The notes: generated by a model from the sequence alone, not told the origin. A stretch of 64,000 bases of DNA from a virus (IMGVR_UViG_3300044953_000102:32001-96000), one strand, 5' to 3'; numbered from the stretch's first letter, positions 5,210-26,195 are shown. A program made the numbers and translations.

Positions 5210-5225
5210 AGAATTTAGTTTATAG

Positions 5226-5299
5226 TGGTCCCATTTGGATTCGAACCAAAGACCTACTGCTTAGAAGGCAGTTGCTCTATCCAGCTGAGCTACGGGACC
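5226..5299 (-). tRNA. trnR: tRNA-Arg (anticodon UCU), no encoded CCA
   Basis: GGTCCCG TAGCTCAGCTGGATAGAGC A ACTGC-CTTCTAA-GCAGT AGGTC TTTGG-TTCGAAT-CCAAA TGGGACC A cloverleaf. Confidence 0.97.
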
Positions 5300-6047: not shown

Positions 6048-6374
6048 TTAAAAAGGTAAATTTAAATCAGTTATTAAATCCTCAGCACCAATTGCTCTAT
6101 CTAGCAATGTTGCTTTTTTGCTTGCAAGTTTCTCCATCTTGGCATTTACTTTATAAACCTCAAGTTTTTGAAACCAATTGTGACCAAGAGAATCATTATG
6201 AGAGAGAATTCCTTCTATTCTACATAACATTCTATCTTTTCTGCTTGAACGCATTACAGCAAAACCAAATATTTCTCTAATTTCATCTGCATCTGCAGCT
6301 GTAAGATTCATATTTAGTTTAATAATTGTGTGACCACCAAAACTGTGGTAGCCAAAAGGAATTGTTTTGTTCAT
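6048..6374 (-). CDS. hypothetical protein
   Basis: 108-aa ORF, leader TAAACTTATG. Confidence 0.65.
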   Translation of the reverse strand: MNKTIPFGYHSFGGHTIIKLNMNLTAADADEIREIFGFAVMRSSRKDRMLCRIEGILSHNDSLGHNWFQKLEVYKVNAKMEKLASKKATLLDRAIGAEDLITDLNLPF

Positions 6375-6391
6375 AAGTTTAATTTTTAAGT

Positions 6392-6571
6392 TTATTTTTC
6401 AGATTCAATTCTTAATGCAGTTGTCACAGTAGCAATTAGTATAATTACTTGGACTATCCATCCAAATATATTATACTGTTCAAAGTGGAATACCCCACCA
6501 AGTGTTGTCATTCCTTCAAGAAAAATGACTAGTAATATAGCCAAGGCTATATATTGGATTTTTTTAATCAT
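6392..6571 (-). CDS. small two-TM membrane protein (59 aa, not in ORF track)
   Basis: MIKKIQYIALAILLVIFLEG...FGWIVQVIILIATVTTALRIESEK; leader TAAACTTATG identical to the neighbouring gene. Confidence 0.65.
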   Translation of the reverse strand: MIKKIQYIALAILLVIFLEGMTTLGGVFHFEQYNIFGWIVQVIILIATVTTALRIESEK

Positions 6572-6699
6572 AAGTTTAGTTTTAAATAGTTAATAATCAT
6601 ATACATTGAGTGGTACTAACTGTACTACTCATTAGTATTTAGTACTTGCTTGAAGCACTAAAAAGAAAGACCGAAACCGTTATAGTTCTAGTCTTTAAA

Positions 6700-7560
6700 A
6701 TTGTAAAGGGCTGAGTGTTGACCTTTTACTTGCAATAATTCTGACAGTTTTCACCATCTTACACACACTATTATTTCTAACAGTATATTGCATGCACAAT
6801 AGATTAGGTATCTATCAAACCACTACGTACCAACTAATAAGTTCCTGTTCCTACCAACTTCCCTGCAAAGGATTAACAAGATGCCTCCTGTTAGTTAGAT
6901 AGTACTTATTTCCTTTACCATCTGTCTTGCGGACATCAGGTATCTACATATTACAGCAGAATAAGTGCATTTTCATTAGTACGTGTCTGGACACTTTTGC
7001 ATTATAATTAGTAATAATTATTTTGCGGTCCAAGAATGTGAAAGTAGTGGTCCAAACCCTTAATAACATGCTACCTTTTGGGTAGTTTAGTTATACTACT
7101 TTCTGTTTTCACCTGCCAAGGATACTCACTGTCAAATGTAATTGTCCACGGTATTTCTACCAACAGACTACAAATGACTAATAGACGCTTCAAGACTGGC
7201 AATCTCTACTACATACTATTTACTATACCTATCTATTGAGATTTCTCTCTCAAACTCCTACTTGTTAGAAGTTCTGTAATACTGTGCATCAACCGTTAGG
7301 CCACAAGCACCCCACATTACAGGGAATATAGTATCTTTCAGTAGACAGGATAAATCCTGCGCAATATGTTACCAACATATCACTTTATACCATCACTGGT
7401 TTATCTTAAGGTCACGAAGACTGACCTGTTGTTTCAGTAACCCATCAAGTAGGTTTAACGTACACACCATGAGCATTTCAACTCTGAGGGTAACAACATT
7501 GTGTACTTATATTCAGGACTCTTACCTGCAAATCCCTACATAGTCAATAGGAATGGCTTT
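6700..7560 (-). ncRNA. large structured ncRNA (~860 nt), ROOL/GOLLD-like candidate
   Basis: No long ORF; many hairpins with GNRA loops on the minus strand (GGTA-GAAA-TACC 7150-7161; ACTGTTA-GAAA-TAATAGT 6767-6784; CTACC-CAAAA-GGTAG 7071-7085); boundaries approximate. Confidence 0.65.
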
Positions 7561-7594
7561 TTTACATATAGACCATTTGCAAAAAATAAAAGTA

Positions 7595-7862
7595 AACAAT
7601 AATGTTGGAGAGATACAAAACGATAGATTAATTACTTCTACCTTCCTTGTTGAAAATCTACTCTCTTTTCGATTGTTACATAGTTTTAGTTACCTACTGT
7701 ACTTGCGGCAACACTATTGCTTACTTCTTAAAATCACTTAAAGGAGCTACCTTTCGTTTAAAACGCTAATGAGTGATTTTATTTGTAACTTACAAAACCT
7801 ACAACAATAGGTACATCAGTTACAATGTTTTTCAACTTTAGGAAAACCAATACACTATTGTT
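7595..7862 (-). ncRNA. structured RNA domain (~270 nt)
   Basis: Closing stem 7852-7862 / 7595-7605 (a G-U pair works only on the minus strand) enclosing several hairpins. Confidence 0.5.
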
Positions 7863-7920
7863 CAAATAGTTTAATTGATTTTTAATGAACAAACCTGATT
7901 TAAATAGTTTACTCTATTTA

Positions 7921-8078
7921 CCCCTCTGCACTCAGTTTGTAATAGTAGCTTTGACGTGCTAATAGATGTCACTCTACTCAAATGTCAGGATTAGTTTTTT
8001 TCACCTGATTCTGGCTTGTTTGTTTACCAGCATTTGAACTATTACAAACTGCTCACCCTTACGGGTTAGTGCAAAGAG
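7921..8078 (-). ncRNA. structured RNA (~160 nt, multibranch)
   Basis: Perfect 14-bp helix 7933-7946 / 8038-8051, outer stem TGCACT/AGTGCA, ACCC-GTAA-GGGT GNRA hairpin. Confidence 0.65.
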
Positions 8079-8086
8079 AAAATAAA

Positions 8087-8113
8087 GAGCAGTTTAATAT
8101 CATGCTCAGGATA
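8087..8113 (-). ncRNA. compact H-type pseudoknot motif
   Basis: TATC-ctGAGCAt-GATA-ttaaac-TGCTC. Confidence 0.5.
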
Positions 8114-8119
8114 ATGTTT

Positions 8120-8359
8120 TTAGTATATAGAATCTAAATCAGGAAGACCTGATTTAATTTCTTCTCTATACTGTTGTACAAGCCAGAGTTTATCTTCAAA
8201 CTCCATACTAGTAATTTCCCGGATTTTCTGTTCATCTAACTTTTCCCGGTAGTACTGTTTAGCAAAAACTAATAGTTCTTGATTAACTAATAGGTTCTGA
8301 TAAGCAAGAGTATCTGTATACTCTCTGTTGATAACTTGATTAATCATAGTTGCATTCAT
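8120..8359 (-). CDS. hypothetical protein
   Basis: 79-aa ORF. Confidence 0.6.
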   Translation of the reverse strand: MNATMINQVINREYTDTLAYQNLLVNQELLVFAKQYYREKLDEQKIREITSMEFEDKLWLVQQYREEIKSGLPDLDSIY

Positions 8360-8745
8360 ATATATATGTTTAAAAGATTACGTAATTAAAAGTTAGCTAT
8401 ATTTTTTTATTATATAAATACTATAATAATATATAGTAATAATGTATAGGATGTATGAGTAGTAAATGAGTAGTGAGTATAATACTCACATACTTAAACT
8501 CTCTTATCTAATACAGATTTCCGCGTAGAATTTTATTTAACTCTACAATTATTCTGTATCTTAATTAACCCATACAAAGTATTATAATAATATTATTTAT
8601 TTTTTGTTGAGTAGTATTGAGTATTGAGTAATATCTACTGATGTTAAACTCAATTACTATTTACTAAAAAAATCAGAAATAATGCGGTAACATTATTTCC
8701 CATTTCAAGTGAAGGGTTAGCAAAAAAGAGGGTATTCTAATTACT

Positions 8746-8780
8746 AAAAAAATGAAAAGTAGGACCTAAGTCCTACTTTC
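8746..8780 (-). terminator. intrinsic terminator
   Basis: AAAGTAGGAC-CTAA-GTCCTACTTT with a T-run on the minus strand, downstream of 8795..9235. Confidence 0.7.
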
Positions 8781-8794
8781 TCATCTCACAATGT

Positions 8795-9235
8795 CTACAA
8801 ATCTTCATTCAATGCAGCATCATCCCCATTTGCAACAGGTTCTTGTATGAATGCATTTGCAGTACTGCTGGATACTTTACCTGCACCAAATACTTTATCT
8901 GCAAGTCTATTTGCAAATGCAGTTGCAAGCACTGATGAAGTTTGCTCCAACATTTCCAATCTTGCAACATCTTTTCTTGTTTCAGATTGGTCTAATGTGA
9001 AGTTACCATCTTGTTTAAGATACAATGGTAGTTCATCTCTAAATGCATCCATATACATTGTATGCATTTGTGGTTCTCCACTTGCAGACTTCCGTGGATA
9101 TTGTTTGAACTGCGGGGAATTAATATATTGTTTAATTTCCTCGGTTGTACCTTTGATGGTATAAATATGGAAGGTTTTACCTTTTTGCTCACCTTCTTTA
9201 CGGATATAGTTCCCACTGTAAACTGCTTTCAACAT
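8795..9235 (-). CDS. hypothetical early protein
   Basis: 146-aa ORF flanked by a repeated motif and a terminator. Confidence 0.7.
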   Translation of the reverse strand: MLKAVYSGNYIRKEGEQKGKTFHIYTIKGTTEEIKQYINSPQFKQYPRKSASGEPQMHTMYMDAFRDELPLYLKQDGNFTLDQSETRKDVARLEMLEQTSSVLATAFANRLADKVFGAGKVSSSTANAFIQEPVANGDDAALNEDL

Positions 9236-24578: not shown

Positions 24579-26195
24579 ATGGCAACTCCAGTTTTAAACA
24601 ATGGTATCTTTCTACGGGATACAGCCTACCAGGCAAGCTCACACGTAGACTCCTACCACTTGGTTAACATGTTGAAGGATGCAGAACCAATGGACCTTGG
24701 TCCAGTAGACCTATGGGCTATGGCTCAGAAGGTGGAAATGCCCCTTTACCAAATGTCTAGCTTTGGTGGTAAGAATGTAATCATGGTGGATAACCACCGA
24801 GGAGAATATAGATGGCAGACTCCTGTATCTATTGATCTTCCATACATTGTTGAGGATATTGAACCTCAAGCAGCTTACAGAGGTACTGATGGATCTACCT
24901 TCCGTATCAAAATCAACAGACGTGAATTTGGACATGGTGATATCATCACTTATCACAAATATAACGGAGTTGAGATGTACATCACTGACGAGGATATCCT
25001 TCCTGTAGGTGACGGTTATATCTATACTGTACAGTTGGTAAACAACGATAACTACAAGTATCTAGATGCAAAATATCTTACTAATGGTACTAAAATCTTC
25101 CGTAAGGGTTCTGCCCGTGGGGAGTATGGTGAAAGATTCTCTGACATCACAACAAGAACTGGTTTCCGTGAATTCTACAACTTTGTAGGAGGTGCTGAAG
25201 CTCACGTACATTATTCTATCTCTTCTCGTGCAGACTTGATGATCAAAGGTGGAATGAATGCAGATGGTACAGTTCCTGTAACTGAGATCTGGAGAACTTT
25301 TGACAAAGGTATGGATCCTTCTATTTCTTCATTAGAAGATATGGTTAAAGTAATGGGTAAAGATAAAGTTAAACGTGCATTTGACAATGGTGACTTATCT
25401 AGAACATTCTTGACTCAAATGGAAGCTGCACACTTAAGTAAAGTTGCAAGTGACATTGAGACCTACTTAATGTGGGGACAAGGAGGTCGTGTACGTCAAG
25501 ATGGACCAGATGACATTAGATTATCTGTGGGTCTTTGGAGACAGTTAGATAACTCATTTAAAAGAGTATATAACAAAAATAACTTTACACTTGATTTGTT
25601 CCGTGGAGAAATCTACAACTTCTTCAATGGTAAGGTTGAGTTCCAAGGTCCAGATCCAAAAAGATCTCTAGTAGTTCAAACTGGTATGGGTGGAATGAGA
25701 ATGGTAAATGAAGCTATCAAAAGAGAAGCTGTTGCTTCTGGTCTATTGATTCAGGCTGCTGATATTGGTGCTATCACTGGTAAAGGTATGGACTTGAACT
25801 TTGGATTTGCTTATACTTCATATGTAATTCCATTCTTGGCAAATGTTAAGTTTGTTCTTAACTCAGCATTTGACAATGTTCATACAAATGATATTGAGAA
25901 CCCAATCATTGATGGTTTCCCATTATCTTCTTATAGCTTTATCATCTTTGATATCACTGATAACACTAATGACAATATCTACTTATTGAAATTGTCTTGG
26001 GATAATCAATTGAAGTGGTGGTATCAAAATGGTACTATGGATTACATGGGACGTACCCAAGGATTCCAGTCTTCTGGTCAATTCAACGGATACCGTGTAA
26101 TGATGTCTCAAACAATGCCTGCAATTTGGGTAAAAGACCCAACTAAGGTATTGAAGATTGTTATGAGAAACCCAGTAACCGGTGGTTCATTCTAA
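24579..26195 (+). CDS. major capsid protein
   Basis: 538 aa, highly expressed-type codon bias, followed by a strong terminator; position in the TerL-portal-scaffold-MCP block. Confidence 0.85.
   Translation: MATPVLNNGIFLRDTAYQASSHVDSYHLVNMLKDAEPMDLGPVDLWAMAQKVEMPLYQMSSFGGKNVIMVDNHRGEYRWQTPVSIDLPYIVEDIEPQAAYRGTDGSTFRIKINRREFGHGDIITYHKYNGVEMYITDEDILPVGDGYIYTVQLVNNDNYKYLDAKYLTNGTKIFRKGSARGEYGERFSDITTRTGFREFYNFVGGAEAHVHYSISSRADLMIKGGMNADGTVPVTEIWRTFDKGMDPSISSLEDMVKVMGKDKVKRAFDNGDLSRTFLTQMEAAHLSKVASDIETYLMWGQGGRVRQDGPDDIRLSVGLWRQLDNSFKRVYNKNNFTLDLFRGEIYNFFNGKVEFQGPDPKRSLVVQTGMGGMRMVNEAIKREAVASGLLIQAADIGAITGKGMDLNFGFAYTSYVIPFLANVKFVLNSAFDNVHTNDIENPIIDGFPLSSYSFIIFDITDNTNDNIYLLKLSWDNQLKWWYQNGTMDYMGRTQGFQSSGQFNGYRVMMSQTMPAIWVKDPTKVLKIVMRNPVTGGSF

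Follow-up and report, generated by a model that had tools for sequence, protein, structure and literature searches.

The window, a stretch of 64,000 nucleotides, forms part of a 114,943-bp IMG/VR virus record with an estimated completeness of 96 %. The major capsid protein, encoded at 24579-26195(+), matches the Pfam family Crass_capsid (8e-30), and the designation as a crAss-like phage, proposed in an earlier note made from the sequence alone, is thus correct. The interval 6700-7560, for which the same note claimed the absence of credible ORFs, encodes no ORF of 60 amino acids or more on either strand (table 11), and no minus-strand ORF of this size occurs in the wider region 6572-8120. The G+C content of the interval (0.35-0.38) exceeds that of the nearby intergenic DNA (0.22-0.30), again as claimed. 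A single tRNA gene, tRNA-Arg(TCT), is located at 5225-5299(-), 1.4 kb downstream on the same strand where a tRNA had been observed (ARAGORN and Rfam), with no tRNA island distinguished by ARAGORN, and a tRNA-Arg(TCT) gene also occurs 1.7-5.7 kb downstream of the RNA described below in five related contigs (L200, L202, L210, L217 and L222). When compared with dinucleotide shuffles, as had been suggested, the minus strand of the interval folds with a free energy of -238.6 kcal/mol (z = -3.6), while the plus-strand fold reaches only z = -1.35.

Some crAss-like phages recode stop codons, and the interval could on this basis be read as a protein-coding gene under an alternative genetic code; a conserved ORF of this kind was also what the earlier note had named as speaking against an RNA. 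However, no ORF spans the interval under table 4, or with TAG or TAA read as glutamine. The longest alternative-code ORF (153 amino acids) lies on the opposite strand and requires one TAG read-through, and the remaining genome contains long table-11 ORFs. Furthermore, the substitutions among homologues are compensatory in the stems, and 3-base periodicity is absent from the variable alignment columns (162/148/160). This reading is therefore refuted.

The earlier note had proposed a ROOL- or GOLLD-like RNA or a new giant non-coding RNA class, and had named a search against Rfam as the check. In E-value mode, the Rfam GOLLD family (RF02032), which reportedly goes back to Weinberg et al. in 2009, matches 6708-7103(-) over model positions 1-416 of 416, with a score of 121.6 bits (E = 7e-33), and a search of the whole record gave the same RF02032 result. 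The score is below the RF02032 gathering cut-off of 150 bits, which is a curation threshold and not a biological feature, and a default Rfam scan at the gathering threshold consequently returned the tRNA only and no GOLLD. A blastn search against GenBank phages found nothing for the RNA region. As a large phage-encoded RNA which forms an RNA-only cage according to the literature, and which is also found near tRNAs, ROOL would be a conceivable identity, but no ROOL match was obtained within 6200-8900 even at E <= 10 (Rfam, E-value mode). No match to ROOL was thus seen in sequence or structure, and the 5' and 3' parts of ROOL are intertwined rather than forming separate domains; an identity as ROOL is refuted. 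The GOLLD part of the proposal stands, while the ROOL and new-class parts do not. Since GOLLD is already known as a family, the RNA at 6700-7560 does not constitute a new class; what is new is a sub-threshold GOLLD lineage with an added 5' domain in a new phage group, and the novelty is modest.

An exact-pattern scan with the 5'-domain motif GATAAACCANNNNTGGTATAAAG retrieved 26 viral contigs and 52 metagenome contigs, most of which could be aligned along the whole RNA (60-89 % identity), while the exact word GGTAAAGGAAATAAGTAC yielded only chance matches and the known relative. From the viral and metagenome contigs, 36 distinct full-length sequences were collected. The consensus fold of these sequences comprises 197 pairs; 97.8 % of the paired cells are canonical, and 134 pairs, distributed over both halves of the RNA, show compensatory changes, although the structure was predicted from the same alignment as used for the covariation and the search motif is invariant by construction. 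Compensatory pairs are found in the 5' extension (7430-7506; 14/19 pairs), the 5' core (7104-7429; 58/84 pairs) and the 3' domain (6696-7103; 62/91 pairs, 98.5 % canonical), and the helices predicted for the 3' domain agree with those of the Rfam structure line. In a 24-sequence alignment (A3) folded with RNAalifold, 94.3 % of the cells are paired, in comparison with 35-47 % for slid controls and 77.7 % for column shuffles. Changes on both sides occur in 118/161 pairs of A3 (slid controls 43-57; column shuffles 70 +/- 4), and its covariation score is 0.53 (slid controls about 0.09; column shuffles 0.22). One long-range pairing predicted by RNAalifold, 7405-7403 with 6722-6720, is invariant and therefore unsupported. 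The covariation that had been suggested as a check is thus evident among the homologues, and the ORF-free stretch is a real structured RNA gene of roughly 800-900 nt. A decaying, non-functional GOLLD remnant might equally score below the cut-off and be missing from close relatives, but the retention of canonical pairs (97.8 %) and the 134 compensatory pairs across 36 sequences of 60-90 % identity point to continued selection on the structure, and broken helices were not seen in most members. Decay is accordingly very improbable.

All hairpins listed in the earlier note are present in the sequence where it had placed them, and all except the 3' terminal stem are found in the consensus helices of the 36 homologues. 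On the minus strand these include AGGTCA/TGACCT (7426-7410), ATATGTT/AACATAT (within 7383-7361), CTGTAAT/ATTACAG (7322-7274), GAGA-GAAA-TCTC (7249-7238), GGTA-GAAA-TACC (7162-7149), the stem GAAAGTAGT/ACTACTTTC around CTACC-CAAAA-GGTAG (7103-7040), TGTC-CGCAA-GACA and ACTGTTA-GAAA-TAATAGT (6785-6766). The 3' stem (6729-6703) can be seen in both the sequence and the Rfam alignment, but forms no helix of the consensus fold. The elements AAGATAAACCA..GGT and the terminal CTCAG, which the note had likened to ROOL/GOLLD elements, are genuine GOLLD signatures common to the environmental GOLLD env-38 and the canonical loci.

From 5' to 3' on the minus strand, the RNA comprises a 5' extension (7430-7506), a 5' domain (7104-7429) and a 3' domain (6708-7103) with a short, tRNA-free linker. 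The 3' domain is the universally conserved half of GOLLD, as delimited by the RF02032 match and the consensus fold, while the 5' domain core is homologous to the canonical environmental 5' domain, which forms the cap in env-38. The extension of about 80 nt is specific to the lineage and consists of two nested helices and one hairpin that are supported by covariation. For example, the pair 7503/7463 occurs as UA in 16 sequences and as CG in 15, and the pair 7453/7441 as CG in 19 and as UA in 15. No conserved sequence is found upstream of the first hairpin in the canonical GOLLD loci. The linker, an A/U-rich segment of about 40 nt at 7000-7039(-), is situated inside the 3' domain, after its first hairpin, and is marked by deletions in the alignment to the Rfam model. 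Its counterpart in env-38 is the disordered linker, and no tRNA was identified in it with ARAGORN.

Three covarying helices were found in a scan for non-nested pairings. The first, a pseudoknot or bridge helix of eight pairs, seven of them compensatory, joins 7057-7050 (GUUUGGAC) with 6992-6985 (GUCCAGAC) on the minus strand (6985-7057) and thereby brackets the linker outside the nested fold. The second connects GUCUU (7421-7417), in the first core hairpin loop, with 7337-7333 (AAGAU) by five pairs, of which three are compensatory (GUCUU/AAGAU, GCCUU/AAGGU and GCUCU/AGAGU). The third pairs 6970-6965 (AUGCAC) with 6797-6792 (GUGCAU), and while only two of its six pairs are compensatory, the segments are complementary in the Rfam consensus too (gugaC/Gucac).

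The true limits are somewhat wider than the 6700-7560 given in the earlier note, with the covarying structure of the 36-homologue consensus beginning at 7506 and the sequence conserved with the nearest relative extending over 7582-6696. The segment 7507-7590(-) represents a leader specific to a sub-lineage, conserved from 7582 only with L222, L212, L198, L210, L217 and L203, and may include the promoter. In L198, L203, L210 and L212 the leader contains a hairpin with the loop UUGCAA and covarying stems; the stem is weak in the window and L222, and different hairpins occupy the leader site in other members. A sigma-70 promoter scan remained at chance level (12 sites versus 12.7 expected), no convincing Bacteroidota-type -7 box could be discerned by eye, and the motif GCWCTAACCC is not enriched in the window. 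Directly 3' of the RNA lies a terminator-like hairpin with a U tract, AAAGACUAGAA...UUUCGGUCUUU CUUUUU (6660-6696, minus strand), which also follows the RNA in L262 and L269, where its stem varies in ways that preserve pairing. This hairpin was not flagged by a consensus terminator scanner, on account of its long loop and few G-C pairs, and is likely the 3' end of the primary transcript. The predicted transcript probably runs from ~7590 to the U tract at 6660.

The RF02032 model spans only the conserved 3' half of GOLLD, and in env-38 a 5' domain precedes this half, so that the 450 nt upstream of the match are the expected site of a GOLLD 5' domain. The less conserved 5' domain of env-38 spans residues 1-420 and its 3' domain residues 421-833, of which 497-538 form a disordered linker (PMC12286853); the env-38 sequence was taken from Supplementary Table 4 of the same paper. 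The env-38 and window RNAs share, in the same order, a first hairpin, the element AUAAA(C)-stem-GNRA-stem-(G)AUAAAGUG, a further hairpin, UGCG, a GNRA hairpin, the element UUGAG-stem-GNRA-stem-CAAUA(A)GA, a GAAA hairpin (L11a in env-38) and, just 5' of the 3' domain, AGU(G/A)AGUAAnCUUGG. A two-motif pattern, ATAAAGTG and TTGAGNNNGNAANNNCAATA separated by a gap of 120-150 nt, retrieved at least 120 viral loci, and the collinear 5' signature is common to the window, env-38 and at least 117 environmental GOLLD loci. Among the thirteen two-motif loci tested, eleven carry GOLLD at 231-323 bits, above the Rfam cut-off, and these canonical GOLLDs are set in tRNA arrays that often adjoin a tmRNA. The ACCA-GNRA-UGGU hairpin was considered as an insertion relative to env-38 and rejected, as at least 117 canonical loci show the same AUAAAC-stem-GNRA-stem-AUAAAGUG hairpin.

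A covariance model (R1) was derived from the 5' segments of 45 canonical loci, leaving out the crAss lineage; the search pattern used to gather the canonical set already included two of the shared motifs. In the window R1 has a single match, at the collinear site 7332-7428(-), with 23.9 bits and an E-value (0.028) that is marginal alone. The collinear site is also matched in 19 other members of the lineage, each with a marginal E-value, and the matches are positionally exact in 20/22 sources. An HMM of the canonical 5' domain that uses sequence alone weakly matches just two short motif islands in the lineage, and most of the 5' domain is thus matched by architecture and not by alignment. A pattern scan for the 3' domain distinguished a further 114 IMG/VR GOLLD loci, which are host-associated and in many cases derived from one sample. 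The lineage 3'-domain HMM matches 90/114 of these loci, with the 3' domain alignable at about 60-65 % identity, while their 5' regions have no motif in common with the window RNA. They thus carry another 5' type and are useless for 5' covariation.

The score below the gathering cut-off, and the failure of the lineage 5'-domain HMMs to find other GOLLD 5' regions, could be taken to indicate a new giant non-coding RNA class whose resemblance to GOLLD arose by chance. This is, however, effectively refuted by the E-value of the match across all 416 model positions, the agreement between independently predicted helices and the Rfam structure, the recognition of most other GOLLD candidates by the 3'-domain HMM, and the 5' motifs and R1 match that are common to canonical GOLLDs. 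Like env-38 and the canonical GOLLDs, the window RNA is phage-encoded, ~800-900 nt in length and built of two domains, with a conserved 3' domain and an A/U-rich internal linker. It retains all Rfam helices, among them the hairpin with the CAAAA loop, the junction GCAAAAGU, the loops CGCAAG and GAAA and the CUCAGCC loop at the terminus, as well as the 5' series AUAAAC-hairpin(GNRA)-AUAAAGUG, UGCG, UUGAG-hairpin(GNRA)-CAAUA and GAAA hairpin. In contrast to the canonical environmental GOLLDs (231-323 bits), members of the lineage score 54-123 bits, possess the covarying extension at 7430-7506, and are ~55 nt shorter (manual count) than the canonical consensus between UUGAG and the end of the 5' domain. 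The window RNA also differs in having a tRNA-free linker and no nearby tRNA array or tmRNA, its one tRNA-Arg being 1.4 kb away. The carriers differ in turn, with the lineage found in crAss-like phages of ~115-125 kb and the canonical GOLLDs in 180-320 kb phages with tRNA islands.

Matches to RF02032 at 54-123 bits occur in 16/26 records holding the lineage 5' motif, and with the window included, 17/17 scored members of the lineage fall below the Rfam cut-off. Crass_capsid is encoded in seven records, namely the window record and 6/26 lineage records, the latter including all three that are at least 90 % complete, but in 0/48 canonical GOLLD carriers, complete 180-320 kb phages among them. The RNA is missing from close relatives: it is present in 1/50 records which share the neighbouring exonuclease, and a relative with a 94 % identical exonuclease is without it. 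Comparison with one syntenic copy reveals a sharp conserved block, 7582-6696, between unalignable flanks. The sharp block and the close relatives without the RNA indicate cassette behaviour, and the RNA is an accessory cassette situated among the small leftward genes which form a block in crAss-like phages. Taken together, ~6700-7506(-) can be assigned, with a probability of about 0.92, to a GOLLD-family RNA gene of a divergent lineage, carried as an accessory cassette in crAss-like phages. No paper pairing GOLLD with crAss-like phages or crAssphage was found in a search of openly available papers. In the part of Kretsch et al. that was available (PMC12286853), no crAss-like phage is named among the GOLLD alignment entries.

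A second conserved, RNA-like three-way scaffold, element X, is located at 7925-8073(-) and is not part of GOLLD. Based on the copies in related contigs, X consists of UGCACC, a hairpin, CAGUUGUAAU, a variable insert of 20-180 nt, and AUUACAACUG-AGUGCAGAGGG. The hairpin has a covarying stem of 4-5 bp and the loop UUCCCAAGG, while the window has CUAACCC-GUAA-GGGUGAG. With a regular expression, 22 distinct copies were distinguished in related contigs (including L200, L202-L206, L210, L215, L217, L222, L236, L241, L242 and others); the window copy was matched by eye, its hairpin differing. No Rfam family matches X. Between X and GOLLD, at about 7595-7862 (7591-7870, minus strand), lies an ORF-free stretch that folds well (z = -3.1 alone) and for which the fetched loci contain no homologue.

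These features could suggest that GOLLD is only the 3' part of a single, composite non-coding RNA of ~1.4 kb (8085-6660, minus strand) which also includes X and 7862-7595; this would be compatible with its identity as GOLLD. The ORF-free interval 7583-8085(-) folds at -137.7 kcal/mol versus -97.8 kcal/mol for shuffles (z = -7.0), no credible ORFs occur throughout 6572-8120, no terminator-like site separates X and GOLLD on the minus strand, and in most relatives no more than 10-15 nt separate X from GOLLD. However, X is upstream of GOLLD in the window and 10-15 nt downstream of the GOLLD 3' hairpin in most relatives, such that the order is reversed. X is furthermore found without GOLLD in L002, L005, L008, L010 (two copies) and L014, and GOLLD without adjacent X in L198 and L212. 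The reversed order and separate occurrence indicate that X and GOLLD are separable modules, and as the intervening 7595-7862 is also without homologues among the fetched loci, a composite transcript can be considered only tentatively.

For the GOLLD RNA itself, a structural precedent is available in env-38 (PDB 9MEE), which forms a D7 14-mer RNA-only cage (Kretsch et al. 2025, PMC12286853). In this cage the 5' domains form caps, the 3' domains form rings that join two half-shells, and the linker, in which some GOLLDs carry tRNAs, points inwards; the expression of GOLLD goes up during phage lysis (PMC12286853). By analogy, the crAss-phage lineage may well form a homo-oligomeric RNA-only cage too, and this is on balance the favoured expectation. 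The transcript would self-assemble via kissing loops and A-minor contacts, and the cage would be assembled during lytic infection. The 3' domain, which would provide the ring and equatorial contacts, is fully retained in the lineage, and the 5' cap domain retains its signature hairpins, while the added extension could change the cap. An inspection by eye for palindromic loops as marks of self-kissing revealed nothing that could be mapped to env-38.

According to the leading idea, the GOLLD cage would enclose or scaffold cargo related to translation. That no tRNA array lies at this locus argues against an obligatory link between GOLLD and phage tRNAs, and the lineage as a whole speaks against the need for such an array. 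It is conceivable, if rather doubtful, that the lineage is a functionally distinct variant, in which the extension and the trimmed distal 5' domain alter the cap, no tRNA array is needed, and the RNA perhaps acts with X. If so, a different cage stoichiometry or pore might be expected, along with a GOLLD function that is independent of phage tRNAs.

GOLLD belongs to the very few natural RNAs known to form an RNA-only cage. The crAss-like phages are a major group of phages in which some members can be cultivated and genetic methods are being developed, and a compact lineage without tRNA islands in these phages provides a simpler setting in which to probe the role of the cage. Threshold-based Rfam annotation misses this whole branch, all scored members of which fall below the cut-off, and the GOLLD family thus extends beyond what current counts indicate. 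Both the alignment of 36 sequences and the three tertiary pairings with covariation are directly usable as model seeds and structure probes.

Several further loci were observed in the course of the analysis. Two distant GOLLDs with the same 5' motif (L218:10301-11221 and L276:6558-7435) contain a tRNA inside the GOLLD linker and occur in tRNA arrays of 8-11 genes, an arrangement known from canonical GOLLDs; no match to Crass_capsid was obtained in the L218 record (95 kb, with an estimated completeness of 51 %). A phage tmRNA gene (74-105 bits) is found within 0.1-3 kb of the canonical GOLLD loci L283, L291, L297, L301, L303 and L312, in addition to tRNA arrays. The 5' motif has three matches in genome contigs. 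Those in Paucihalobacter ruber and a Fibrobacteres MAG are without GOLLD and were taken as chance. A full-length GOLLD of the lineage, matched by both domain HMMs (~1e-100), is present in L230 (RFNS01000086.1, 4.6 kb, Lake Lanier), which is labelled 'MAG: Alphaproteobacteria' and probably represents phage DNA that was wrongly binned with a bacterial genome. Finally, a near-threshold match to the RAGATH-1 hammerhead ribozyme (46.9 bits versus a cut-off of 56.3) is located at L233:2939-3011(-), on a metagenome contig that also has a divergent member of the lineage.
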